A stretch of DNA of 64,000 nucleotides, taken from an uncultured cyanobacterium (GTDB lineage: Bacteria; Cyanobacteriota; Cyanobacteriia; PCC-9006; JAAUQQ01). How positions within the stretch are numbered: the first letter of the stretch is position 1; each line of letters begins with the position of its first letter. The DNA is taken from NCBI GenBank assembly GCA_963718615.1, contig OY970368.1:1568001-1632000 (forward strand). The letters are read 5' to 3'. The notes under the pieces were generated by a model. It was not told the DNA's origin. It made no database searches and saw only the letters and a list, made by a program, of their open reading frames with translations. Of this stretch, positions 53,082 through 64,000 are shown piece by piece. Position numbers and translations under genes: made by a program.

Positions 53082-54344
53082 TTAAAAGGGTAATGTTTCA
53101 GTCACCAAGGATTCCACCGGGGCGATCGACTGGAGATATTGCAAAAAATCCCAAAGCTCCGCATCGTTCAGGTCTTTACGGGTGGGCTTATCATAGCGGG
53201 ACTTGAGGAAATTGCTGCCTTGGCGATTGGTCCATTTCAGCCGTTTACATTCGTTCGCCGTGCGTTCCATCATCTCGCTGCGGGAGAGGGGCGGTTCTAG
53301 GGTGACCAAGGATTCGTCAAAGGCCGCGCTGTAATCGGTTTCGGGCTGAGGAGTTGCCAACGGTGCAGGTTCTGGGTCAGTAAGTTCGAATGTATCAGGC
53401 TCTAGCTCGGCAGGCTCTAGCTCAGCAGGCTTTAGCACTGGACCTGTGGCCGCCGCTGCCGCTGGTTCCTCAAACTGATCGGGATCAAAGTGGGAGGGCA
53501 GGGCTCGCAGATAGCTCAGAAAATCCATGAGCTCGCTGTAATCGGTGATGTAATCCCGCGAAGACTTGCCATAGGTTCGCTGCAAATAATCGGATTCCTG
53601 CTTGGTGGTCCAGCCCAAGCGCTTGAGTTCAACCTCCACCTGAGCTAAGTCCTCAGACCAATCTGCCACGAAAGCCGCAGGTTTAGAAGACGGCACCGAG
53701 GCCGGGGAAGATGAGGGGGTAAAGGGTTCCTCAAACTTCGGCTCCGGCAGATCGTAGTCGGTTAAGTCGTAATCCGTGAGCGTCGGTTTGGGTTTGGGCT
53801 TTTCGACGGATTGGCCGCTGGGCTTGCCTTTTCCGTTCGGCTTGCCATTAGATAGGCCATTTTTAGATAGGCCATTTGAGGTTCCGTTTAATTGGCCCTT
53901 TGATGCCTCAGAGGCTGGCAGGGTTTCTATCGCAGCCGGTGCGTTTATTGGAGCCTGAGTCGTTGGAGCCTGAGCCGTTGTTGGTGTGAAAGGGGCGCTG
54001 GTCGTGGGGGTGACGGCGGTGACGGCAGGGGTAGTAGTAGGAACAAAGCCAAACTGTTCTAGAGCCCGTAGCTGAGCCAAAGCCTCTGCTTGAAGCAAGT
54101 CAGTCGCCTCCGCCAGGGCACTCGCCAAGGTCATGCCGCCCACAACCACAGTGGCTTGGACGATATAACAGAGAGGAGACGGAAGGTCCGAAGCCTGAAC
54201 CTTCACCAAATTGGCAATCACGCCGCCCATAGGATAATGCCGTCGAAACTGCTGAATCCCTTCCAGGGCTTGCTGGGGGAGCTCCTCTGGAGCGGTGGCC
54301 GCGATCGATGAAGGGGGTTGAGCGAAATCGCGATTTTGAGCCAT
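53082..54344 (-). CDS. Conserved hypothetical protein with two repeated C-terminal domains
   Basis: Two KRLxWT...YxKxxR...ELxDFLxYL repeats separated by low-complexity linkers. Confidence 0.8.
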   Translation of the reverse strand: MAQNRDFAQPPSSIAATAPEELPQQALEGIQQFRRHYPMGGVIANLVKVQASDLPSPLCYIVQATVVVGGMTLASALAEATDLLQAEALAQLRALEQFGFVPTTTPAVTAVTPTTSAPFTPTTAQAPTTQAPINAPAAIETLPASEASKGQLNGTSNGLSKNGLSNGKPNGKGKPSGQSVEKPKPKPTLTDYDLTDYDLPEPKFEEPFTPSSSPASVPSSKPAAFVADWSEDLAQVEVELKRLGWTTKQESDYLQRTYGKSSRDYITDYSELMDFLSYLRALPSHFDPDQFEEPAAAAATGPVLKPAELEPAELEPDTFELTDPEPAPLATPQPETDYSAAFDESLVTLEPPLSRSEMMERTANECKRLKWTNRQGSNFLKSRYDKPTRKDLNDAELWDFLQYLQSIAPVESLVTETLPF

Positions 54345-55756: not shown

Positions 55757-56632
55757 TCAAGATTGTTGTTCTAGAAACTGGGCGATCGCCCCATCAAATC
55801 GCTCCGGATCCACCAAAAACGCCCAATGATTGCTCTCCAGTGTGCAAATCTCAAGCTGAGGCAAAAATTGCCGATAGGGCTGGAGCTGTTTTTCAGAGCG
55901 ATTGATGCCGAGGGTCGGACGAACCAAGAGCGTCGGTAGATCGAGGGTTTGGGTAAAGCCCGGTTCCATGATCGCATCAAACATGGGTTCTCGGGCGGCG
56001 ATCGCAAACTTACTCCCCCAGCTTCCGTCGGGCTTTTGTTCCACCGATTGCTCAAAGACTTGCTGCTGCAACGGCGTCCAGTCCCGATATTGTTTGAGCT
56101 GTCGTGCCTGGGTTGCCGCAGCAGCTTTGTCCGGAAATGGTCCCAGCATCTTGAGAAACGGCAGAATTTTGTAAAACAGCGGAAACGTCAACTTGCTCCA
56201 GCGGGGGAAGCGGTTCATAAACGCCGGATCCACCAAAATCATCGAGCGAAATTGCTCCGGCTCTCGCGTTGCCCAGACAACCAGTAGTTTTGCCGTCCAG
56301 GAATGTCCCAGCAAATGGGCAGAAGTCCAGCCATAATGGGCCATTAACGCCTTCACATCTTGAATCGTGTCCGTGAAGCTGTAGCCAGTTGCGGGTTTGC
56401 TGCTTTCGCCATGGCCTCGCAGATCGGGGGCGAGGATGTGGTAGCGATCGCCCAAGTCCGCCCCCAAACTCGCCCCCAAACTCGCCCAAACCCCTGCATG
56501 GTCCGCCATGCCATGGAGCAAAATCAGCGGAATGCCGCCAGGGTTCCATTCAAAATAGGAAATTTCAACGCCATGGGCCGTTGTCAAGACTTGACGTGGG
56601 GGAAGCTGAAATGTGCGATCGCCAAGGGTCAT
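55757..56632 (-). CDS. Alpha/beta hydrolase
   Basis: LLHGMAD, DLRGHG, GHSW and NHW motifs. Confidence 0.88.
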   Translation of the reverse strand: MTLGDRTFQLPPRQVLTTAHGVEISYFEWNPGGIPLILLHGMADHAGVWASLGASLGADLGDRYHILAPDLRGHGESSKPATGYSFTDTIQDVKALMAHYGWTSAHLLGHSWTAKLLVVWATREPEQFRSMILVDPAFMNRFPRWSKLTFPLFYKILPFLKMLGPFPDKAAAATQARQLKQYRDWTPLQQQVFEQSVEQKPDGSWGSKFAIAAREPMFDAIMEPGFTQTLDLPTLLVRPTLGINRSEKQLQPYRQFLPQLEICTLESNHWAFLVDPERFDGAIAQFLEQQS

Positions 56633-56710: not shown

Positions 56711-57313
56711 TTAGGTTGCTTCTGAAGGTTCCTCTGAAGGGTCCTCGGATACCGGAAATACGACGTTCTCATAGACGGCTTCGATCGCGCCTTCAAATCC
56801 CACGCTGGCTAGTGAAAATTGTCCTTCGACAAAGGTGTGGAGGATCCAGACCCCAGCTTCTCCTCGCCGGAAGCATTCGATGCGCGATCGCTTCGAGTTG
56901 ACCAAAACGTATTCTTCGAGGCTGTCTAGGGTCTGGTAATCCGCAAATTTGTCGCCGCGATCGTAGGCTTCGGTGGAGTCGGAGAGGACTTCAAGGATCA
57001 GTTTAGGAAATGATTTATAGAGGGGGGTTTCGGCATCTCTGCTCTCACAGGTCACCATGACATCAGGATAGAAGAAGCGGTTGCGTCGCTCAATCCGAGC
57101 TTTCATATCTGAAATATAGACACGACACCCTGAACCCCGTAAATGAGAGAGCAACAGAGCGGAGATGTTGAGGGCAACGGTGACATGACTGTCCGTTGCG
57201 CCTGCCATAGCGAAGATTTCGCCGTCGTGATACTCGTGTTTGACGTCACGCTGGGTTTCGAGGGTGAGGTATTGGTCAGGGGTGAGGTAGGCGCGATCGG
57301 AGAGAGCAACCAT
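56711..57313 (-). CDS. Uma2 family (DUF820) PD-(D/E)XK endonuclease-like protein
   Basis: HEYHDGEIFAMAG, YPDVMV and EVLSDSTEAYDRGDKF motifs. Confidence 0.92.
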   Translation of the reverse strand: MVALSDRAYLTPDQYLTLETQRDVKHEYHDGEIFAMAGATDSHVTVALNISALLLSHLRGSGCRVYISDMKARIERRNRFFYPDVMVTCESRDAETPLYKSFPKLILEVLSDSTEAYDRGDKFADYQTLDSLEEYVLVNSKRSRIECFRRGEAGVWILHTFVEGQFSLASVGFEGAIEAVYENVVFPVSEDPSEEPSEAT

Positions 57314-57499
57314 GAGAATAGGGGAATAGATGACGAGGCTGGTGAGGATGTTTCTAGTCTACGGGTGGGTTGGGCGATGGGGCGGGCTTTAGGGGGGGCG
57401 GGTCGAGCAAATCAGGGAAGCGCGATCGCATTCTGGGGAGTTCAACACCGTTAAAATGAAAATAGCATCGGGTTGAAAAGTTCAACAAGCCCTAGCACT

Positions 57500-58267
57500 A
57501 TGGTTCAGCAGCCCCGTCCCACCTTGGTCGAATATCCCGAAACTGATGGTCAGCCCATGACAGAAAGCGATGCCACGCGCAACTACTTGGTTTACTGTGT
57601 CGCTGCGCTGCGGCTATTTTTTCAGAGTCGGCCCCAGGTCTATGTTTCCGGTAACCTGTTTATCTACTACGAAGAAGGCCAGCCCAGCAAAAACATTTCG
57701 CCGGATGTCTTTGTGATTTTTGGCGTGAGCAACCGGGAGCGCCGCAGCTATAAGGCCTGGCAGGAGGGCAATAAGCTGCCGTCGTTTATTTTGGAGCTGA
57801 CGTCGAAGAGTACGAAGAAGCAGGATGAGGAGACCAAGCCTGAGCTGTATCGCCGACTTGGGGTGCAGGAATATTTTCAGTACGATCCGACCGGGGATTA
57901 TCTTCAGCCGCAGCTCAAGGGGCAAACCTTGGTGAATGGCGAGTATCAGCCGATCGAAGCCCAGACGCTGGCCGATGGAACCGTATCTTTGTCCAGTCGG
58001 GTTTTGGGTTTGGATCTGCGGCTGTTGGCCGCTTCTGTGGCTTCGTTCCTACCCTCCCCCTTGGGAACGGTTACGCGGGAGTTACGCTTATTTGATCCTG
58101 CAACGGGAGCGCAGCTCTTGACCTATGCGGAGTTGGAGCTGTCTCGGGTGCGGGCAGAGCAGGTGGCAGCGGAGGAACGGCAGCGGGCGGAAGCAGAGCA
58201 GCAGCGGGCGGAGCGGTTGGCGGAGCATTTGCGATCGCTCGGTGTTGATCCAGATTCGATTTTCTAG
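57500..58267 (+). CDS. Uma2 family endonuclease-like protein with coiled-coil tail
   Basis: YPETDGQPM, SPDVFV, ELTSKST and EYFQYDP motifs; RAERLA..LRSLGVDPD tail. Confidence 0.92.
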   Translation: MVQQPRPTLVEYPETDGQPMTESDATRNYLVYCVAALRLFFQSRPQVYVSGNLFIYYEEGQPSKNISPDVFVIFGVSNRERRSYKAWQEGNKLPSFILELTSKSTKKQDEETKPELYRRLGVQEYFQYDPTGDYLQPQLKGQTLVNGEYQPIEAQTLADGTVSLSSRVLGLDLRLLAASVASFLPSPLGTVTRELRLFDPATGAQLLTYAELELSRVRAEQVAAEERQRAEAEQQRAERLAEHLRSLGVDPDSIF

Positions 58268-58291: not shown

Positions 58292-59419
58292 ATGAGCGAA
58301 TATCAGGTTTACGAATTCCAGGCGATCGACCGTTTCCTGTCTTCCGACGACAAGGCGTATTTGCATAGCCTTTCCAGCCGAGCCCAGGTGGGAGCAACTT
58401 CTGCTCGGTTTACCTATAGCTATGGGGATTTTCGGGCAAAGCCGGAGGAGGTGCTCGATCGCTGTTTTGATGTGATGTTGTATGTCGCCAATTTCGGCGT
58501 GCGCCGCTTGGTCATGCGGTTGCCGAAGGAACTGGTGAAAATGTCCAAGCTCGAACCCTACGAAATCCCCTACACGATTACATTCGAGGAAACACCCCGC
58601 TCAATCCTCGTTGATCTCAACTTGGTTTGTGAGGATTACTACACTTGGATTGAAGAGGGACCGATGCTCTCCAGTCTGGTGTCCCTGCGGGAGGAACTCC
58701 TTCGGGGAGATTTACGGCTGCTGTATCTGGCATGGCTGCGCAGTGGCAAGAGTGAAGAGTCACCCCTGTCGCCAGACGCTATGCTTGAGCCTCCGGTTCC
58801 GGCGGGCTTGCAGCAACTATCCACGGGGTTGAAGGCATTTGCTGAGCTGTTTGTCGTGGATGAGGATTTGATTGCGGCGGCAGCAGAGGAAAGCGCCGCA
58901 GGGCCAGAAGATATGGAGGAACCCTTGGAGCAATGGCTGGCAGAACTGACGACGGAGGAGCATATTGAGTATTTGCTGCGGGCGATGCGGGGGGAGACCC
59001 ATGTGGGGCAAGAGTTGTTGCAGCGACTCAGGTTTGAGTTTGGTTCGGAGGAAGATGAGGAGGAGGAATTGGAGGGTTTGCCGGGACGTTCGCTGGGGGA
59101 TTTGATGGCGATCGCCCAACAAAAACAAAAACAACGAAAAAAACAAGCGGCCCAGGCAGAGCAACGCGCCCGCGAGAAGTATCTCGATTCGTTGGTGCCA
59201 AAGCAAGAGGCGTTGTGGCGGGAGGTGCCTCGCTTGATTGAGCTGAAAACGGCGCGGGGGTATGAGCAGGCGGTGGCGATTTTGGTGGATTTGAAGGCTG
59301 TGGCATTGCTCCAAGGCAAGGTTGTGGATTTTATGGAGCGAGTGCAGGCGCTTGTGGATCGTTATTCGGGTCGATCTGCGTTGAAAAAGCGAATGCGGGA
59401 TGCCAATTTGTTGGATTAG
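58292..59419 (+). CDS. Conserved hypothetical protein
   Basis: MSEYQVYEFQAIDR..SSRA..YSYGDF..GDLRLLYLAWL; 375-aa ORF 24 nt after the Uma2 gene. Confidence 0.8.
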   Translation: MSEYQVYEFQAIDRFLSSDDKAYLHSLSSRAQVGATSARFTYSYGDFRAKPEEVLDRCFDVMLYVANFGVRRLVMRLPKELVKMSKLEPYEIPYTITFEETPRSILVDLNLVCEDYYTWIEEGPMLSSLVSLREELLRGDLRLLYLAWLRSGKSEESPLSPDAMLEPPVPAGLQQLSTGLKAFAELFVVDEDLIAAAAEESAAGPEDMEEPLEQWLAELTTEEHIEYLLRAMRGETHVGQELLQRLRFEFGSEEDEEEELEGLPGRSLGDLMAIAQQKQKQRKKQAAQAEQRAREKYLDSLVPKQEALWREVPRLIELKTARGYEQAVAILVDLKAVALLQGKVVDFMERVQALVDRYSGRSALKKRMRDANLLD

Positions 59420-59462: not shown

Positions 59463-62400
59463 TCAGCTCTCAAAAAGTCCGTGAAAGAGGTCTGAGAAGT
59501 CTATTGGAAGCAGGAATTGAATGCCCTGCAGTGCTTGCTCTAGGGTGAGGTCTGGGTTGATGGTTTTGGCGCGGCGGAGGAGGAAGTTGGTTTCTTCGAG
59601 GTAGGCGGCGCGATCGAACGCATTAACTGATTTTTGACTGGCAGAAATGCGGCGACTGGCTTCTTCGATAACGGCTTGAGCAGCGGTTTGGCGGAGGCTA
59701 CTCACGAGGGGTTGGTCAATGGATAACTTCGGATCGCGTGCTTTTGCTTCTTCGAGCAGGGCCTTGGCTGCGGTGTAATTTCCCATTTCGGCGGTGGTGC
59801 GGGCCTGGATTAGGAGCAGGGGTGGAATATCGGATTGGACCTTGGCACAGTCACTTTTTAGACCTTGAATTTCTGGTCCATTGATTGTGTCTTTGATCCG
59901 GTAGCAGCCCATGGCGAAAAAGTCAGACAGCCTGATCGGCCACAGCTTCACCGTGTTATCCCAACTCCCCGAGGCGATCGTATTGCCATCCGGACTGAAG
60001 GCGACACTATTGACAGAGGATTCATGGCCTTTGAGGGTGGAGATCAGCGTCCCATCCCGTCGCCACAGCTTCACCGTGCTATCCTCGCTCCCGGAGGCGA
60101 TCGTATTGCCATCGGGACTGAAGGCGACACTATTGACATTGCCTTCATGGCCTTTGAGCGTCGTCAGCAGCGTCCCATCCCGTCGCCACAGCTTCACCGT
60201 GTTATCCCAACTCCCCGAGGCGATCGTATTGCCATCCGGACTGAAGGCGACACTATTGACAGGGGATTCATGGCCTTTGAGGGTGGAGATCAGCGTCCCA
60301 TCCCGTCGCCACAGCTTCACCGTGCTATCCTCGCTCCCGGAGGCGATCGTATTGCCATCGGGACTGAAGGCGACACTATTGACATTGCCTTCATGGCCTT
60401 TGAGCGTCGTCAGCAGCGTCCCATCCCGTCGCCACAGCTTCACCGTTTTATCCCCACTCCCCGAGGCGATCGTATTGCCATCCGGACTGAAGGCGACACT
60501 ATTGACAGGGTCTTCATGGCCTTTGAGGGTGGAGATCAGCGTGCCATCCCGTCGCCACAGCTTCACCGTTTCATCCCCCCCCAAGCCCCCACTGGCCGAG
60601 GCGATCGTATTGCCATCCGGACTGAAGGCGACACTATTGACAAAGTCTTCATGGCCTTTGAGCGTCGTCAGCAGCGTGCCATCCCGTCGCCACAGCTTCA
60701 CCGTTTCATCCCCCCCCAAGCCCCCACTGGCCGAGGCGATCGTATTGCCATCCGGACTGAAGGCGACACTATTGACAGAGGATTCATGGCCTTTGAGGGT
60801 GGAGATCAGCGTGCCATCCCGTCGCCACAGCTTCACCGTTTTATCCCCACTCCCCGAGGCGATCGTATTGCCATCCGGACTGAACGCCACGCTACTGACA
60901 TAGAATTCATGGCCTTTGAGCGTCGTCATCAGCGTCCCATCCCGTTGCCACAGATTCACCGTGCCATCCCCCAAAAAGCCCCCACTGGCCGAGGCGATCG
61001 TATTGCCATCGGGACTGAAGGCGACACTATTGACATTGCCTTCATGGCCTTTGAGCGTCGTCAGCAGCGTCCCATCCCGTCGCCACAGCTTCACCGTGCT
61101 ATCCTCGCTCCCGGAGGCGATCGTATTGCCATCGGGACTGAAGGCGACACTATTGACATTGCCTTCATGGCCTTTGAGCGTCGTCAGCAGCGTCCCATCC
61201 CGTCGCCACAGCTTCACCGTTCTATCCCAACTCCCCGAGGCGATCGTATTGCCATCCGGACTGAAGGCGACACTATTGACAGGGGATTCATGGCCTTTGA
61301 GGGTGGAGATCAGCGTGCCATCCCGTCGCCACAGCTTCACCGTTTTATCCCAACTCCCCGAGGCGATCGTATTGCCATCCGGACTGAAGGCGACACTATT
61401 GACAAAGTCTTCATGGCCTTTGAGGGTGGAGATCAGCGTGCCATCCCGTCGCCACAGCTTCACCGTTTTATCCCAACTCCCCGAGGCGATCGTATTGCCA
61501 TCCGGACTGAACGCCACGCTACTGACATAGAATTCATGGCCTTTGAGCGTCGTCATCAGCGTGCCATCCCGTCGCCACAGCTTCACCGTGTTATCGTCGC
61601 TCCCCGAGGCGATCGTATTGCCATCGGGACTGAACGCCACGCTCCTGACATCGGATTCATGGCTTTGTTGCCGCCCTTTCAATGCTGGATCGACAAAGTT
61701 CATCACATTTTGAATGCCACTTTGATTGACTGCGGTATTTAATGCCTTCAGGACTTCGCTTTCTGTCACTTGATAGGGTTCTAAATTCAATCTTGCGCCA
61801 ATGCCTAGGGGCCGAAAACGCTGGTAGGCTTTCATGCTTTTCACCAGTGCTGTCTGCACATCCCCTTCAACAGATGCATCCTGAGCCGTCATGCTCAAGA
61901 TTCGAATATCCGCTATATTCCACAATAGTCCCGCAAATCCGGCTAAGCCCATACTTCCAGCCAGAAAAAAACTACCAATCCCAATAAGACGTCTCCTGGC
62001 AGTTCGGTTAGAGGCTTCCAAGTTACTCTTCTCTTGTTGCTCCAATTGAAGACTTTCCTGTATTTCTGCAAGCTCTTCCTGCGTAGCCGAGTCCTGGCTA
62101 GCTTGCAAAAATCGATAATCCTCTGGTGTAAGTTTCCGCCCCTCTTCGTTTGCCCATGCTCTTGCTCTTTTCAGTTCATCCCCCGCGAGAAGCCAGGCAT
62201 TATGTTTGCCCATCCTTGACCACATTCGCATTTCTTCTCCATAAGGACGTAATGCTAACAACATTTTTTCTACCCACTCTGGTCCGAAAACCTGTTGGTA
62301 AATTCGATTTGCCAAAACTAGGCTGTCTCCTCGTTTCACTACCAATCCTGTTAACCGCAATGCCAGTAATTCTTCACTTGAATCTAGCCCGACTCGTCCT

Positions 62401-63365
62401 GTCTGCAAAATCTGCTGATATAACCCTAATATCGCTCCCGCCAGAAACTCCTCCGCCATCACCCGATCCTGAATCGTCTGGAAATGCACTTGCTCATCCT
62501 GGCTCTCCCAAACGCGAATCATTTGATTCTCAATAATTTTCTCAATCTCCCTACGGGGAAAAGGAGAACAAAGATCAGGAGATTCTGCCACCAAACGACA
62601 GGCCCGCTGGGTCAAAAATGGTTGCCCCCCCGTCCAATCCAAAACCGTTTGTAGCGTCGCCTCTCCCCCCGGCAACCCCTCGGCCAAACCAAGTGCCTCC
62701 CCAAACGAAAACCCCGTCAACTCAACCGCCTGACCCACATTAAACGGCGTCCGTCGCTTATCCCGAATCAAATCCTGCGGCGCACAAACCCCCAACAACG
62801 CAAACGTCAACCGCCCATAGCGAGGATCATCCACCCGCCGGTTATACAACTCCCGAATCGCCGCAAAAAAATCATCCGTCCGAAACCCCAACCCCAACAC
62901 ACTATCAATCTCATCCACAAAAATTACCAACGGATCCATTAGTTCCGCCAGCAACCCCTCCCCCACAAACTCCCCCCACCGCTGCACAAACGACAACCCC
63001 TCCCGCTCCGCCCACCACTGCCGCACCCTCGGCAACCGCCAATCCTGCAACCGCCCCGACTGCTCCCGCACCTGCTTGACAATCTCCCACACCACCCCCA
63101 AATACCACTGCTCCGCCGTCACCTCCCCCGAACCGATCGCCGTCATATCGATCGCCACACAAACCACACCCTCGCTCTGCAACCGCGCCATCGTCCGCAC
63201 CCGCAGACTCGACTTGCCCATTTGCCGCGAATTCAGCACATAACAAAACTTCCCCGCCTTCAAACCCGCATAAAAATCCTCATCCGCCTGCCGCCGCACA
63301 TAACTCGGCGCACCCAACGGCAAACTTCCCCCCAGCCAATACTCAAAGGCAGGACCGGAGATCAT
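59463..63365 (-). CDS. AAA_35/STAND-like ATPase, TM helix, 14 WD40 repeats and TPR-like tail
   Basis: YVRRQAD, SRQMGKSS (Walker A variant), IFVDEID (Walker B), WTGGQPFLTQ, hydrophobic segment, 14 GH...W repeats. Confidence 0.92.
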   Translation of the reverse strand: MISGPAFEYWLGGSLPLGAPSYVRRQADEDFYAGLKAGKFCYVLNSRQMGKSSLRVRTMARLQSEGVVCVAIDMTAIGSGEVTAEQWYLGVVWEIVKQVREQSGRLQDWRLPRVRQWWAEREGLSFVQRWGEFVGEGLLAELMDPLVIFVDEIDSVLGLGFRTDDFFAAIRELYNRRVDDPRYGRLTFALLGVCAPQDLIRDKRRTPFNVGQAVELTGFSFGEALGLAEGLPGGEATLQTVLDWTGGQPFLTQRACRLVAESPDLCSPFPRREIEKIIENQMIRVWESQDEQVHFQTIQDRVMAEEFLAGAILGLYQQILQTGRVGLDSSEELLALRLTGLVVKRGDSLVLANRIYQQVFGPEWVEKMLLALRPYGEEMRMWSRMGKHNAWLLAGDELKRARAWANEEGRKLTPEDYRFLQASQDSATQEELAEIQESLQLEQQEKSNLEASNRTARRRLIGIGSFFLAGSMGLAGFAGLLWNIADIRILSMTAQDASVEGDVQTALVKSMKAYQRFRPLGIGARLNLEPYQVTESEVLKALNTAVNQSGIQNVMNFVDPALKGRQQSHESDVRSVAFSPDGNTIASGSDDNTVKLWRRDGTLMTTLKGHEFYVSSVAFSPDGNTIASGSWDKTVKLWRRDGTLISTLKGHEDFVNSVAFSPDGNTIASGSWDKTVKLWRRDGTLISTLKGHESPVNSVAFSPDGNTIASGSWDRTVKLWRRDGTLLTTLKGHEGNVNSVAFSPDGNTIASGSEDSTVKLWRRDGTLLTTLKGHEGNVNSVAFSPDGNTIASASGGFLGDGTVNLWQRDGTLMTTLKGHEFYVSSVAFSPDGNTIASGSGDKTVKLWRRDGTLISTLKGHESSVNSVAFSPDGNTIASASGGLGGDETVKLWRRDGTLLTTLKGHEDFVNSVAFSPDGNTIASASGGLGGDETVKLWRRDGTLISTLKGHEDPVNSVAFSPDGNTIASGSGDKTVKLWRRDGTLLTTLKGHEGNVNSVAFSPDGNTIASGSEDSTVKLWRRDGTLISTLKGHESPVNSVAFSPDGNTIASGSWDNTVKLWRRDGTLLTTLKGHEGNVNSVAFSPDGNTIASGSEDSTVKLWRRDGTLISTLKGHESSVNSVAFSPDGNTIASGSWDNTVKLWPIRLSDFFAMGCYRIKDTINGPEIQGLKSDCAKVQSDIPPLLLIQARTTAEMGNYTAAKALLEEAKARDPKLSIDQPLVSSLRQTAAQAVIEEASRRISASQKSVNAFDRAAYLEETNFLLRRAKTINPDLTLEQALQGIQFLLPIDFSDLFHGLFES
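59940..61663 (-). repeat. Intragenic tandem array of 14 near-identical WD40 units (123 bp; three of 135 bp)
   Basis: Repeated GGCGATCGTATTGCCATC(C/G)GGACTGAA ... CCACAG(C/A)TTCACCGT blocks read directly. Confidence 0.97.
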
Positions 63366-64000
63366 AACCCCACACTCCCAAAATACTGCCGATACAACTC
63401 ACAACTCACCTGCACCACATTGCGATAGGGCTTCACCAACCCCAAACTCCGCAACGCCGCTCCTTGGCCCAAGGCAATCGCCACCCCAGCCTCACTCGCC
63501 AACACCCGCCGAAACGCCGTCGCCCACTCCGGATGCCGCTCCAAACTCGATCGACAATGCTGCAAATGTCGCCCATACAACCCTGCTTCCGTGGCCCCTT
63601 CCGTCAGCAAATTCTCCAGAGAGCAGCGTCCACGGGCGATCGCATATAACCCCACTCGCAACAACTGCGGATGCCCGCCGACGAGAGGCATGAGGGCGAT
63701 CGCCACCCCCGCCTCTAACCCATGACGCACCGCCAACGCCTCCCCCTGGGCCTCACTCAACTCCGGCAATTCAATTTCCAGCCCCACATTAAACGGCGAC
63801 TGCGACTGTTGCAGCGTCTCATGATCAAAATCCTTAGAATGCACCAACACCAACCGTAACTTTTGCCATTGTTGGTGCGTTCTACCCTTCTCATACCAGG
63901 CCCGCAACATCGAAAAGAAATCGATCGGCCAAGCCCCACCCTCTCGCTCCTCAAACAGCAAATCCACCTCATCCAACTCCAACACCAAACCAGCCCCGAT
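63362..64000 (-). CDS. AAA_35/STAND-like ATPase (3' part; starts beyond window)
   Basis: LDEVD Walker B, FFSMLRAW, SPFNVG, GGHP and C-terminal CELYRQYF motifs; its TGA overlaps the next ATG. Confidence 0.85.
   Translation of the reverse strand: MGAGLVLELDEVDLLFEEREGGAWPIDFFSMLRAWYEKGRTHQQWQKLRLVLVHSKDFDHETLQQSQSPFNVGLEIELPELSEAQGEALAVRHGLEAGVAIALMPLVGGHPQLLRVGLYAIARGRCSLENLLTEGATEAGLYGRHLQHCRSSLERHPEWATAFRRVLASEAGVAIALGQGAALRSLGLVKPYRNVVQVSCELYRQYFGSVGL

Follow-up and report, generated by a model that had tools for sequence, protein, structure and literature searches.

A hypervariable 14-unit WD40 array in the putative sensor of a two-gene AAA_35 module from an uncultured cyanobacterium

Organization of the locus

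At one end of the window, that is, the whole stretch of 64,000 nucleotides analysed here, lie two adjacent genes of the minus strand whose products both carry an AAA_35 domain (Table 1). The product of the downstream gene, hereafter the sensor, displays in this order an AAA_35 ATPase, a coiled coil, a membrane-type segment, 14 WD40 units and a two-cysteine helical tail. The upstream gene, its partner, runs off the window; its full product (546 aa from the first Met) carries a caspase-like CHAT protease domain (PF12770, E 5e-13) and an AAA_35 domain (E 5e-107), and its stop codon overlaps the start codon of the sensor gene by 4 nt. A scan for promoters and terminators gave nothing above shuffled expectation. 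Long ORFs of the plus strand within the array, such as 59865-61742 (625 aa), are antisense read-through of the repeat and were rejected as genes.

Table 1. Features of the AAA_35 gene pair (positions in the window)
Feature	Position	Strand	Basis
Partner gene, 3' part, running off the window	63362..64000	-	AAA_35 E 1e-59 on the part within the window
Sensor gene, 1300 aa	59463..63365	-	ORF; Pfam WD40 E 8e-199, AAA_35 E 2e-23
AAA_35 NTPase domain, residues 13-360	62286..63329	-	Pfam PF14516, AF2 model
Hydrophobic Gly/Ala-rich membrane-type segment, residues 460-481	61923..61988	-	Hydropathy
Helical linker, residues 482-564	61674..61922	-	Translation; nearly identical in P0088
WD40 array, 14 units, residues 565-1150	59916..61673	-	In-frame units, 2YMU alignment
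C-terminal cap and helical tail, no Pfam family	59466..59915	-	C1154, C1173; low-confidence model

In residues 1-560 of the sensor, AAA_35 is the sole Pfam match at E values up to 0.1, neither NACHT, NB-ARC nor HET being found there, and no domain precedes it. NCBIfam provides no informative family for the protein. The Walker A (G50-K51-S52-S53) and Walker B (D151-E152) motifs are conserved and correspond to invariant columns. The AF2 model of the domain (pLDDT 90.4) is closest to the archaeal ATPases 2QEN (Z 20.6) and 2FNA (Z 20.4) and to ORC2 (Z 17.6), and also matches the plant NLR RPP1 (Z 16.8) and CED-4 (Z 16.0). The predicted fold is thus of the NBD-helical-winged-helix type common to STAND and ORC proteins. 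Comparison by hhalign of the AAA_35 profile with the nSTAND1 domain encoded by the same genome was not significant (probability 3.8%).

The AAA_35 domains of the sensor and of its partner are homologous (334 columns, hhalign probability 99.85%). The His- and Cys-containing motifs of the partner CHAT domain are present and conserved with the related loci L040 and L035; we take this His and this Cys to be the catalytic dyad. The genome carries five such gene pairs, three with WD40 units and two with CHASE2 instead. In all five, the sensor-type gene is preceded by a gene that joins a variable domain to AAA_35, this domain being CHAT with TIR_2, TIR_2 or CHAT in the WD40 modules and none being recognized in the two CHASE2 modules. 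An upstream gene of this type was also found in 7 of the 10 relatives examined, with Trypsin_2 and TIR_2, HTH_3, Pkinase (three times) or nothing recognized (twice) as the variable domain. Since these partners include kinases and HTH proteins, they fit signalling as well as immunity.

Repeat structure, variation and mosaicism of the array

The array, described here from one genome of the species, is made of 14 in-frame tandem units, 11 of 41 aa and three (units 6, 8 and 9) of 45 aa, the extra 4 aa lying just before a conserved Asp. Pfam WD40 (PF00400) matches 14 stretches of the sensor, and Tandem Repeats Finder reports a repeat at 59939-61667 with a period of 123, 13.8 copies and 87% matches. 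When each unit is taken to begin at TLKGHE and columns are numbered without gaps, His in column 5, Ser in column 23, Asp in column 27 and Trp in column 33 are found in 14/14 units. The best solved match is PDB 2YMU, which aligns blade for blade over the whole array (E 2e-218 to 4e-218); by homology with this structure, the 14 blades would form two seven-bladed propellers. Pairwise nucleotide identity between units 2-13 averages 90.2% (range 83.7-100), units 11 and 13 being identical in DNA, and amino-acid identity is about 0.87 (357 differences over 66 pairs and 41 columns).

The first-pass annotation of this DNA had described 14 near-identical WD40 units with changes concentrated in a few slots. 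Indeed, five slots, columns 7, 8, 10, 26 and 28, account for 231 of the 357 amino-acid differences between units 2-13 (65%), and the residue sets listed for them, as well as the 4-aa insert variant, which changes the loop length at D-1, are all present. The other differences fall in columns 40-41 (77/357), in the insert-linked column 24 (27/357) and in changes private to unit 6 (22/357), the amino acid being fixed in 31 of the 41 aligned columns. According to the V-R1-R2-V rule and the D-1 position (PMC3419727) and to the HET-E codons (PMC1805685), as given in the available text of these papers, the slots correspond to the canonical hotspots of the top face (R1-2, R1 and D-1) and to the positions next to them. 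All three canonical columns are among the seven that vary most out of 41 (p = 0.003), and the pattern is therefore not due to chance. The slots were placed on the surface by the 2YMU alignment and published sequence rules, because the single-sequence AF2 model of residues 520-1300 (pLDDT 42, pTM 0.27) is unusable for mapping.

Non-synonymous change is likewise concentrated in the slots. Nei-Gojobori counting over the 66 pairs of units 2-13 gives pN 0.427 and pS 0.023 (pN/pS 18.6) for the five slots, and pN 0.0045 and pS 0.131 (pN/pS 0.03) for the remaining 33 columns, slot pN being about three times the pS of these columns; between repeats that exchange sequence, and in surface loops that are also the least constrained, such ratios are descriptive and do not amount to a formal test. 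In slot codons 7 and 8 the third base is the same in 14/14 units, which gives no indication of local hypermutation. The genome's three other highly repetitive arrays show the same pattern (slots, pN 0.32-0.49; rest, pN 0-0.027). The surface formed by the slots would thus be a specificity determinant under diversifying selection.

The units are mosaics in which blocks have been re-assorted. Four gametes occur in 87 of 210 pairs of informative sites, with Rm of at least 5. Residues DF are associated with WDK in unit 3 and with the insert in unit 9, and GN with EDS in units 5, 11 and 13 and with the insert in unit 6. Furthermore, the FY block, synonymous markers included, follows both unit 1 and unit 6, and units 11-12 are copied as units 13-14 in an exact repeat of 183 nt at an offset of 246, the longest within the array; unit 14 departs from unit 12 at column 8 and where the array ends. 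This reshuffling, block recurrence and duplication had all been read correctly in the first pass.

The source of this diversity appears to lie in the array itself. A blastn search of the whole genome with two units retrieved only the array and one paralogous array, at 77% identity or less. Donor cassettes are therefore ruled out, as are paralogues sharing units, a search for which the first-pass annotation had proposed. A DGR target is also ruled out: the complete genome yields 0 matches to the reverse transcriptase family PF00078, in a search whose positive controls matched, and there is no second copy of the unit DNA. Ordinary point mutation and unequal exchange or gene conversion within the array may account for its diversity. 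The CGATCG core reported in every unit is indeed present once per unit (14/14), always in the 7-of-8 form of HIP1, full HIP1 being absent, but this HIP1-like core is a coding by-product. It lies in the N-T-I-A codons and encodes the conserved T-I-A, and none was found in the two sister AAA_35 arrays; genome-wide, HIP1 is present in 8832 copies versus 111 expected.

The nearest proteins, P0002, P0003 and P0088, share 66%, 60% and, over 46% of the query, 70% identity with the sensor; in the N-terminal part, the best identity among 40 relatives is 53%. The orthologue P0002 also carries 14 units. Identity of the unit scaffold is 0.947 within the sensor and 0.886 with P0002, whereas slot identity with P0002 falls to 0.114 between units of equal index and 0.171 between units of different index. 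Orthologues have kept the scaffold, but their slot residues are wholly different. Among three near-identical full-length copies of P0003, 3 array positions vary, two of them slots.

Membrane-type segment and relation to known systems

The hydrophobic segment between the ATPase and the array was called on hydropathy and charge bias only. Its mean Kyte-Doolittle value (19-mer window) is 1.71, a borderline score for a cut-off of 1.6, and it is preceded by five K/R in 15 residues and followed by one in 15. Of 36 relatives, 29 have an equivalent segment and 7 lack it, and its N-flank is the more basic one in 26 of these 29, i.e. a positive-inside bias. C1154 and C1173 are the only Cys downstream of the segment, the former invariant and the latter nearly invariant among the 36 relatives; the tail helices are seen in a low-confidence model (pLDDT 56-73). 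An nSTAND1-WD40 protein from the same genome also carries the two-Cys cap but lacks the membrane-type segment. Two paralogues display an extracellular-type CHASE2 domain where the sensor has the segment and the WD40 units. In one relative the segment separates an upstream kinase from downstream TPR-like repeats, and another, which carries GAF/PAS-like sensors, has no such segment.

The segment and its charge bias suggest that the propellers may well lie on the periplasmic or lumenal side, and a membrane-type segment between ATPase and array argues against a cytosolic, NLR-like location. All things considered, an extracytoplasmic position of this array has about even odds. No statement of such a topology was found in the literature searched, including the available parts of PMC9218822, PMC5587647, PMC7159879 and PMC8195603, and Dunin-Horkawicz et al. 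2014 may address it. The conserved membrane segment with its positive-inside bias, together with the CHASE2 paralogues, goes beyond those papers.

The locus fits the WRAP operon type published for cyanobacteria as well as the "highly repetitive WD40" class, and the general phenomenon is already in print (PMC5587647 and PMC9218822, in their available parts). Like WRAP proteins, the sensor is a cyanobacterial ATPase protein with 14 near-identical 41-aa WD40 blades at its C-terminal end; as described in the text available from PMC9218822, in both systems the gene is paired with another ATPase gene whose product has a TIR and/or caspase-like domain, here the upstream CHAT-AAA_35 gene. The variable position of WRAP (W/R/N) aligns with column 10 (R1). 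The array protein of WRAP begins with a STAND-type ATPase according to the same text, and the ATPase is here an AAA_35 domain of STAND/ORC-like fold, that of Npun_R6612 being compared by description only. The array described here is older (pS 0.13), with all five slots diversified, loop-length variants and a clear mosaic structure, whereas WRAP is reported, in what is available of PMC9218822 and PMC6805158, to differ by some 10 amino-acid changes only, with synonymous changes absent. A degenerate WRAP motif pattern was found in 0 of the 401 cyanobacterial genomes searched.

In the part of Hu et al. 2017 (PMC5587647) at hand, highly repetitive WD40 proteins are defined by an internal identity cut-off of 0.7, which the array exceeds with its value of about 0.87, a mean over units 2-13 that differs from their eight-repeat-window rule. 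These proteins are described there as conserved at most sites, diverse at predicted interaction hotspots and enriched in cyanobacteria. The AAA_35 pair, the membrane segment and intra-array recombination are features of the present locus that the same part of that paper does not treat.

A second relationship is with the HET-E, HET-D and HNWD proteins of Podospora anserina (Paoletti et al. 2007, PMC1805685, in the portion available), which share with the sensor concerted evolution of WD40 units, repeat reshuffling and an NBD-helical-winged-helix ATPase upstream of the repeats. The positively selected codons of HET-E (7, 9, 25 and 27) flank the conserved codons 8 and 26 and lie in the d-a loop and the b-c turn of the top face (PMC1805685). 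As had been proposed in the first pass, the slots occupy the equivalent positions, since columns 8/10 flank V9 and columns 26/28 flank D27, the counting being descriptive. The qualification "HET-E-like" therefore stands for the selected codons and the mosaic units; it does not extend to domain content or to exchange with paralogous genes. Unlike HET-E/HNWD, the system is bacterial, has neither HET nor NACHT, carries its effector on a second protein, undergoes no RIP and shows no exchange with paralogous genes, and its membrane-type segment suggests a non-cytosolic array.

The likeness to NLRs, also claimed in the first pass, is partial as well. It holds for the STAND/ORC-like predicted fold: the AAA_35 model matches NLRs, CED-4 and Apaf-1 (VIA-align Z 14.5-16.8), as well as Avs3 and Avs4 (Foldseek E 2e-6 and 2e-5), with which the sensor shares a C-terminal repeat sensor. 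It fails for the absence of NACHT or NB-ARC, the location of the effector on the partner and the membrane-type segment. In contrast to NLRs and classical STAND proteins, effector, NOD and repeat sensor are not gathered in one polypeptide, CHAT being on the partner; in contrast to Avs and bacterial NLR-related proteins, the best folds are 2QEN and 2FNA (Z about 20.5), the effector is unfused and two ATPases are involved. The available parts of Kaur et al. 2020 and 2021 contain no AAA_35 pair system. Lastly, the DGR-diversified sensors described in the accessible text of PMC10907252 resemble the sensor in their hypervariable ligand-binding end and in being NTPase-linked putative conflict proteins, some of them predicted to be periplasmic. 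They differ from it in that here there is no reverse transcriptase, variation is not tied to adenines and the fold is WD40 instead of C-type lectin.

Putative function and alternative explanations

The array is best interpreted as the hypervariable recognition surface of a WRAP-type AAA_35 sensor, a reading to which we assign a probability of about 0.8. The best overall explanation is that it forms, probably, the part of the sensor subunit that binds the ligand, within a cyanobacterial module of two genes. A putative variable non-self ligand (phage, competitor or foreign-kin molecule) would bind the propellers and the signal would be relayed to the AAA_35 domain of the sensor, which may co-assemble with the homologous AAA_35 domain of the partner and gather the CHAT protease domains. 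The CHAT domains thus brought together would activate proteolysis and so trigger cell suicide or signalling, and the module would resemble an apoptosome split over two polypeptides. A role of the sensor in conflict or non-self recognition is putative and only somewhat favoured over other roles.

A more speculative extension, rather doubtful at present, is that AAA_35 pairs are bacterial analogues of Toll-like receptors and not of cytosolic NLRs, with propellers displayed outside the cytoplasm. A hypervariable propeller pair, possibly stabilized by a C1154-C1173 disulfide, would then lie in the periplasm or the thylakoid lumen and sense foreign molecules on or before their entry, or else the surface of non-kin filaments nearby. 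A single membrane helix would transmit the signal to the cytoplasmic STAND-like ATPase, which would recruit its TIR- or CHAT-bearing sister ATPase. Each genome would possess several receptors with private, fast-evolving specificities, here three with WD40 and two with CHASE2.

The sensor could instead be an ordinary environmental or developmental transmembrane receptor devoid of any immune role, the AAA_35 pair being a general signalling module that converts an extracytoplasmic cue into regulated proteolysis. The free swapping of sensors (WD40, TPR, CHASE2, GAF/PAS) and outputs (kinase, HTH, TIR, protease) would suit such a receptor, as would the CHASE2 paralogues, the relatives with GAF/PAS-like, kinase or TPR sensors and the partners with Pkinase or HTH_3. 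So would the PADLOC search, which detected no known defence family, its single hit being a WD-repeat match to HEAT-ARM_XIII. However, a fixed cue would leave unexplained the non-synonymous excess at contact residues, the complete slot turnover on a conserved scaffold between orthologues and the fact that close relatives have lost the array or retain a collapsed one. Furthermore, CHAT and TIR outputs are, in the available literature, a typical trait of cell-death and conflict systems. This explanation is therefore judged unlikely.

Much less probable still is that the array is a recently amplified propeller whose tolerant exposed loops drift neutrally, with no diversifying selection or recognition role. 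Continuous recent amplification of WD40 blades is documented in cyanobacteria (PMC9218822 and PMC6805158, in their available parts) and the slots are indeed surface loops, but slot pN (0.43) is higher than the synonymous divergence of the other columns (0.13) and other exposed positions are fixed, 31 of 41 columns being invariant. Moreover, the same slots head the entropy ranking in orthologues, one homologue and paralogues. Two of the other arrays of the genome, which are younger sister arrays with almost no synonymous change, have a slot pN of 0.32 versus a synonymous divergence elsewhere of 0.013 and 0.000, which neutral drift cannot explain.

Lastly, an assembly artefact in unit order or number has a very low probability: close relatives with a one-unit array (P0088, on a contig of 5115 bases) or with the partner gene but no array (the metagenome-assembled genome L040, the closest genome locus) come from short contigs, as repeat collapse would give, but the present genome is a single 6.1 Mb contig scored 100% complete, exact repeats do not exceed 183 nt, units have distinguishing markers, the frame is open through all 14 units and closes in the conserved cap, and 14 units are also found in P0002 and 2YMU.

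Interpreted as the variable recognition surface of a sensor, the array provides a clean, intermediate-age case of a bacterial repeat sensor that diversifies without a dedicated mutator. It combines a frozen scaffold with five free contact positions per blade, i.e. 70 over two propellers, loop-length variants and block re-assortment. The locus and its four sister modules, all in one complete genome, form a tractable set for asking what the sensors bind. If the propellers are extracytoplasmic, the usual view of WRAP-type proteins as "bacterial NLRs" would need revision.

Anatomy and variation of the WD40 array

The sensor gene is a single open reading frame that contains the whole repeat (Table below), and Pfam finds 14 WD40 stretches in its product (E 8e-199). 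The array comprises 11 units of 41 aa and three units (6, 8 and 9) of 45 aa, whose four extra residues lie directly N-terminal to the conserved Asp, in the b-c turn. DNA identity among units 2–13 averages 90.2% (83.7–100%), units 11 and 13 being identical, and 31 of the 41 amino-acid columns are invariant. Columns 7, 8, 10, 26 and 28 (ungapped numbering of a unit starting TLKGHE), referred to here as slots, gather 231 of the 357 pairwise amino-acid differences; the others comprise 77 in columns 40–41 (strand d), 27 in column 24, which is tied to the insert, and 22 private changes of unit 6. The tetrad residues His5, Ser23, Asp27 and Trp33 are kept in 14/14 units. The first-pass annotation, which had described a near-identical 14-unit array with few variable slots, is confirmed as an observation: every slot pairing and recurrence that it listed appears in the codon table of the units, and the duplication of units 11–12 as 13–14 corresponds to an exact 183-nt repeat at an offset of 246. 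Its interpretation as a recombining, NLR-like recognition surface is partly supported. The long + strand ORFs over the array are antisense read-through of the repeat, not genes. The HIP1-like core of the units is a side effect of coding for N-T-I-A; full HIP1 sites number 8832 in the genome and 0 in the array, and the two sister AAA_35 arrays of the source genome contain no such core.

Coordinates of the sensor gene, its surroundings and related loci (G000:C1, source genome; L040 and L095, genome loci with relatives)
Feature	Location	Strand	Remarks
Sensor ORF	window 59463-63365	-	1300 residues
WD40 array, cut in frame	window 59916-61673	-	14 units, residues 565-1150
Repeat tract	window 59939-61667		period 123, 13.8 copies (Tandem Repeats Finder)
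Two-Cys cap	window 59847-59906	-	just after last blade; Cys about 19 residues apart
ORF convergent with sensor gene	window 58292-59419	+	375 aa; 43 nt between ends; no match in Pfam, NCBIfam or PADLOC
Uma2-family gene	window 57473-58267	+	putative restriction-endonuclease-like; just downstream of module
Uma2-family gene	window 56711-57313	-	as above, divergent from it
12-nt tandem repeat	window 56459-56487		perfect, 2.4 copies; within alpha/beta-hydrolase-like ORF region
Pro/Ala/Thr-rich ORF	window 53082-54344	-	420 aa; short acidic tandem motifs; C-terminal-type module of ~40 aa in two copies
Four further two-gene AAA_35 modules	G000:C1:469049-474598; 1162816-1168724; 2754297-2758270; 4178354-4182825		outside window
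Peptidase_C14 (caspase) + nSTAND1 + 14 WD40 protein	G000:C1:3509345-3513841		outside window
Three tandem AAA_35-WD40 genes	L095:2426-12990		Okeania MAG; internal unit identity 0.60-0.70
L040 sensor orthologue	L040:6945-8678		ends after coiled coil
L040 tail remnant	about L040:8300-9000

The diversity of the array is confined to contact positions. [quoted passage not shown] Applied to the motifs GHE-x-x-V-x-S-V and GS-x-D-x-TVKLW of the units, these rules assign R1-2 to column 8, R1 to column 10 and D-1 to column 26, with columns 7 and 28 as their direct neighbours; by chance, the three hotspot columns would all rank within the top seven of 41 for variability with a probability of 0.003. In HET-E, as reported in excerpts of PMC1805685, the strongly selected codons (7, 9, 25 and 27, flanking conserved 8 and 26) sit in the d-a loop and the b-c turn of the top face. 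The proposed equivalence with the HET-E variable positions holds, with the same geometry and a numbering off by one residue. The 4-aa insert extends the b-c loop, which also carries the slots of columns 26 and 28. This mapping relies on sequence rules and on a blade-for-blade alignment (E 4e-218) with the solved 14-blade structure 2YMU, because the single-sequence model of the array was unusable (pLDDT 42); 2YMU folds as two seven-bladed propellers, according to the passages seen of PMC6805158 and PMC9218822.

A Nei-Gojobori count across all 66 pairings of units 2–13, descriptive here since repeats exchange sequence, gives pN 0.427 and pS 0.023 for the five slots, 0.339 and 0.409 for columns 40–41, and 0.0045 and 0.131 for the remaining 33 columns, so that pN in the slots is roughly threefold the scaffold's synonymous divergence. 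In the other three highly repetitive arrays of the source genome, pN is 0.32–0.49 in the slots and 0–0.027 elsewhere, and in two of them synonymous change is close to nil (0.013 and 0.000). The Peptidase_C14-nSTAND1-WD40 protein, which is devoid of a hydrophobic segment and carries 8-aa insert variants, displays the same slot hypervariability (pN 0.485 in the slots versus 0.027 in the rest).

A diversity-generating retroelement is excluded because the genome gives 0 matches to the reverse transcriptase family PF00078, which is detected in control genomes. A local mutator acting on the slots is unlikely, since slot codons 7 and 8 each keep their third base unchanged across all 14 units. Exchange between units is apparent: among 21 informative biallelic nucleotide sites, all four gametes occur in 87 of 210 pairs, and unit 6 is a recombinant with a GN-type first half and an insert-type second half, which bears out the claim that slots are reshuffled. 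At least five exchange events are needed, three of them between codon blocks 1–7, 16–24 and 41–44 and two within codon 32; recurrent mutation could explain the latter two. When two units were searched by blastn against the whole 6.1-Mb genome, matches were confined to the array and a single paralogous array (≤77%), hence there are neither donor cassettes nor inter-gene exchange, and the paralogues sharing units that had been envisaged were not found. In this respect the array differs from the Podospora family, in which exchange occurs between genes.

The ATPase pair and its relatives

AAA_35 covers residues 13–360 of the sensor protein (E 2e-23), and its Walker A (G50 K51 S52 S53) and Walker B (D151 E152) residues are invariant or nearly so in sets of 36 and 46 relatives. 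An alignment-based model (46 sequences, pLDDT 90.4, pTM 0.86) is most similar to 2QEN (Z 20.6 and rmsd 4.0 over 312 aligned residues) and 2FNA (Z 20.4), both archaeal ATPases, ORC2 (Z 17.6), the plant NLRs RPP1 (Z 16.8) and NRC4 (Z 16.3), CED-4 (Z 16.0), Apaf-1 (Z 14.5) and MalT (Z 13.7); Foldseek matches include Avs3 and Avs4. These matches identify the predicted fold as an ATPase-helical-winged-helix module of the ORC/STAND group. By sequence, on the other hand, the supposed NLR-like receptor is neither NACHT nor NB-ARC.

A 4-nt overlap joins the sensor start codon to the stop codon of an upstream gene that extends beyond the window. Its product, read from the genome, has 546 aa and carries CHAT (E 5e-13) and AAA_35 (E 5e-107), the latter homologous to the sensor AAA_35 over 334 columns (hhalign probability 99.85%). 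In 7 of the 10 relatives inspected (Trypsin_2+TIR_2, HTH_3, three Pkinase, two with none recognised) and in all five modules of the source genome (CHAT+TIR_2, TIR_2, CHAT, two with none recognised), the sensor gene has upstream of it a gene encoding a variable N-terminal domain followed by AAA_35. From their sequences, these are two homologous, apparently active ATPases that are conservedly paired, here with a protease domain on one of them. Two of the four further modules carry highly repetitive WD40 arrays, with CHAT+TIR_2+AAA_35 and TIR_2+AAA_35 partners, and the other two carry CHASE2 where WD40 would be. None of the three tandem genes of L095 encodes a hydrophobic segment.

Among the nearest relatives in the protein collection, P0002 (66% identity, 98% coverage) has 14 units, P0003 (60%) about 15, and P0088 shares 70% identity across the N-terminal 46% of the sensor protein. 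With the five slots set aside, units are 0.947 identical within the sensor protein, 0.886 to those of P0002, 0.747 to those of P0003 and 0.826 among themselves in P0003; P0003 has a unit consensus of its own, which indicates concerted evolution or re-amplification. When units of equal index are compared, slot residues of the sensor protein and P0002 agree in only 11% of positions, against 17% for units of different index, which amounts to complete replacement of the slot residues while the scaffold is conserved. The slot columns also rank highest by entropy in P0002, P0003, P0020 and the paralogues. The P0003 cluster includes three full-length sequences that are nearly identical; of the six alignment columns at which they differ, three lie in the array, two of these being slots.

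P0088 (769 aa, contig of 5115 bases) keeps a near-identical linker and tail but one WD40 unit only, unable to form a propeller by itself, and is either a collapsed assembly or a contracted allele. L040, the closest genome-contig locus (65%), has an intact CHAT+AAA_35 partner and keeps the ATPase part, lacks membrane segment and array, and retains downstream about the last 25 tail residues, through either deletion or assembly collapse. Both come from short or metagenomic assemblies, in which collapse is indistinguishable from true loss.

Topology, proposed mechanism and place among known systems

Between coiled coil and array, residues 460–481 form a Gly/Ala-rich hydrophobic stretch (Kyte-Doolittle 19-mer mean 1.71) with five Lys/Arg in the preceding 15 residues and one in the following 15. 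Of 36 aligned family members, 29 have an equivalent segment (1.6 or more, mostly >2.0), the N-flank being more basic in 26 of these (reverse in 1, ties in 2); among 12 relatives drawn from genomes, 9 have one. In one relative a kinase domain precedes the segment and TPR-like repeats follow it; another, with GAF/PAS-like sensors, has no such segment. The two source-genome paralogues without WD40 carry at the corresponding place CHASE2, an extracellular sensor domain according to the portions of the literature consulted. After the segment, the sensor protein contains exactly two Cys, C1154 (invariant in 36 relatives) and C1173 (nearly so), in a conserved cap that is matched by no Pfam family and also occurs at the C-termini of most WD40 relatives.

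With a single span and a necessarily cytoplasmic ATPase, the propellers would be extracytoplasmic. Against this count the borderline hydropathy of the sensor protein, the segment missing from 7 of 36 relatives and the presence of the Cys cap in a segment-less nSTAND1-WD40 protein; from sequence, the odds of extracytoplasmic propellers appear about even. The membrane segment and the CHASE2 paralogues support the bolder idea of an extracytoplasmic, Toll-like arrangement; the full scenario is rather unlikely (roughly three chances in ten).

A ligand from phage, competitors or non-kin filaments could be bound on the propeller top faces and the signal passed to the sensor AAA_35 domain, which would co-assemble with the partner AAA_35. 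Clustered CHAT domains would then become active and cleave targets, possibly leading to cell death, abortive infection or signalling.

The class is already published, and this locus adds a further member. Highly repetitive WD40 proteins with diverse hotspots are described in the sections seen of PMC5587647, and those of PMC9218822 and PMC6805158 report recently amplified propellers of WRAP, a cyanobacterial two-gene operon type with near-identical blades, in ATPase pairs with TIR or caspase partners, for which a role in innate immunity is proposed; excerpts of PMC1805685 present HET-E as the paradigm for such diversification. In its gene pairing, the module corresponds to the WRAP operon type as Dunin-Horkawicz et al. 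2014 is summarised in the part of PMC9218822 consulted. Compared with WRAP, the array is older and more diversified, with loop-length variants and clear intra-array recombination. The literature search, including the consulted parts of PMC9218822 and PMC5587647, found no statement on the membrane segment and the CHASE2 paralogues, and it is these two features that go beyond the published accounts found.
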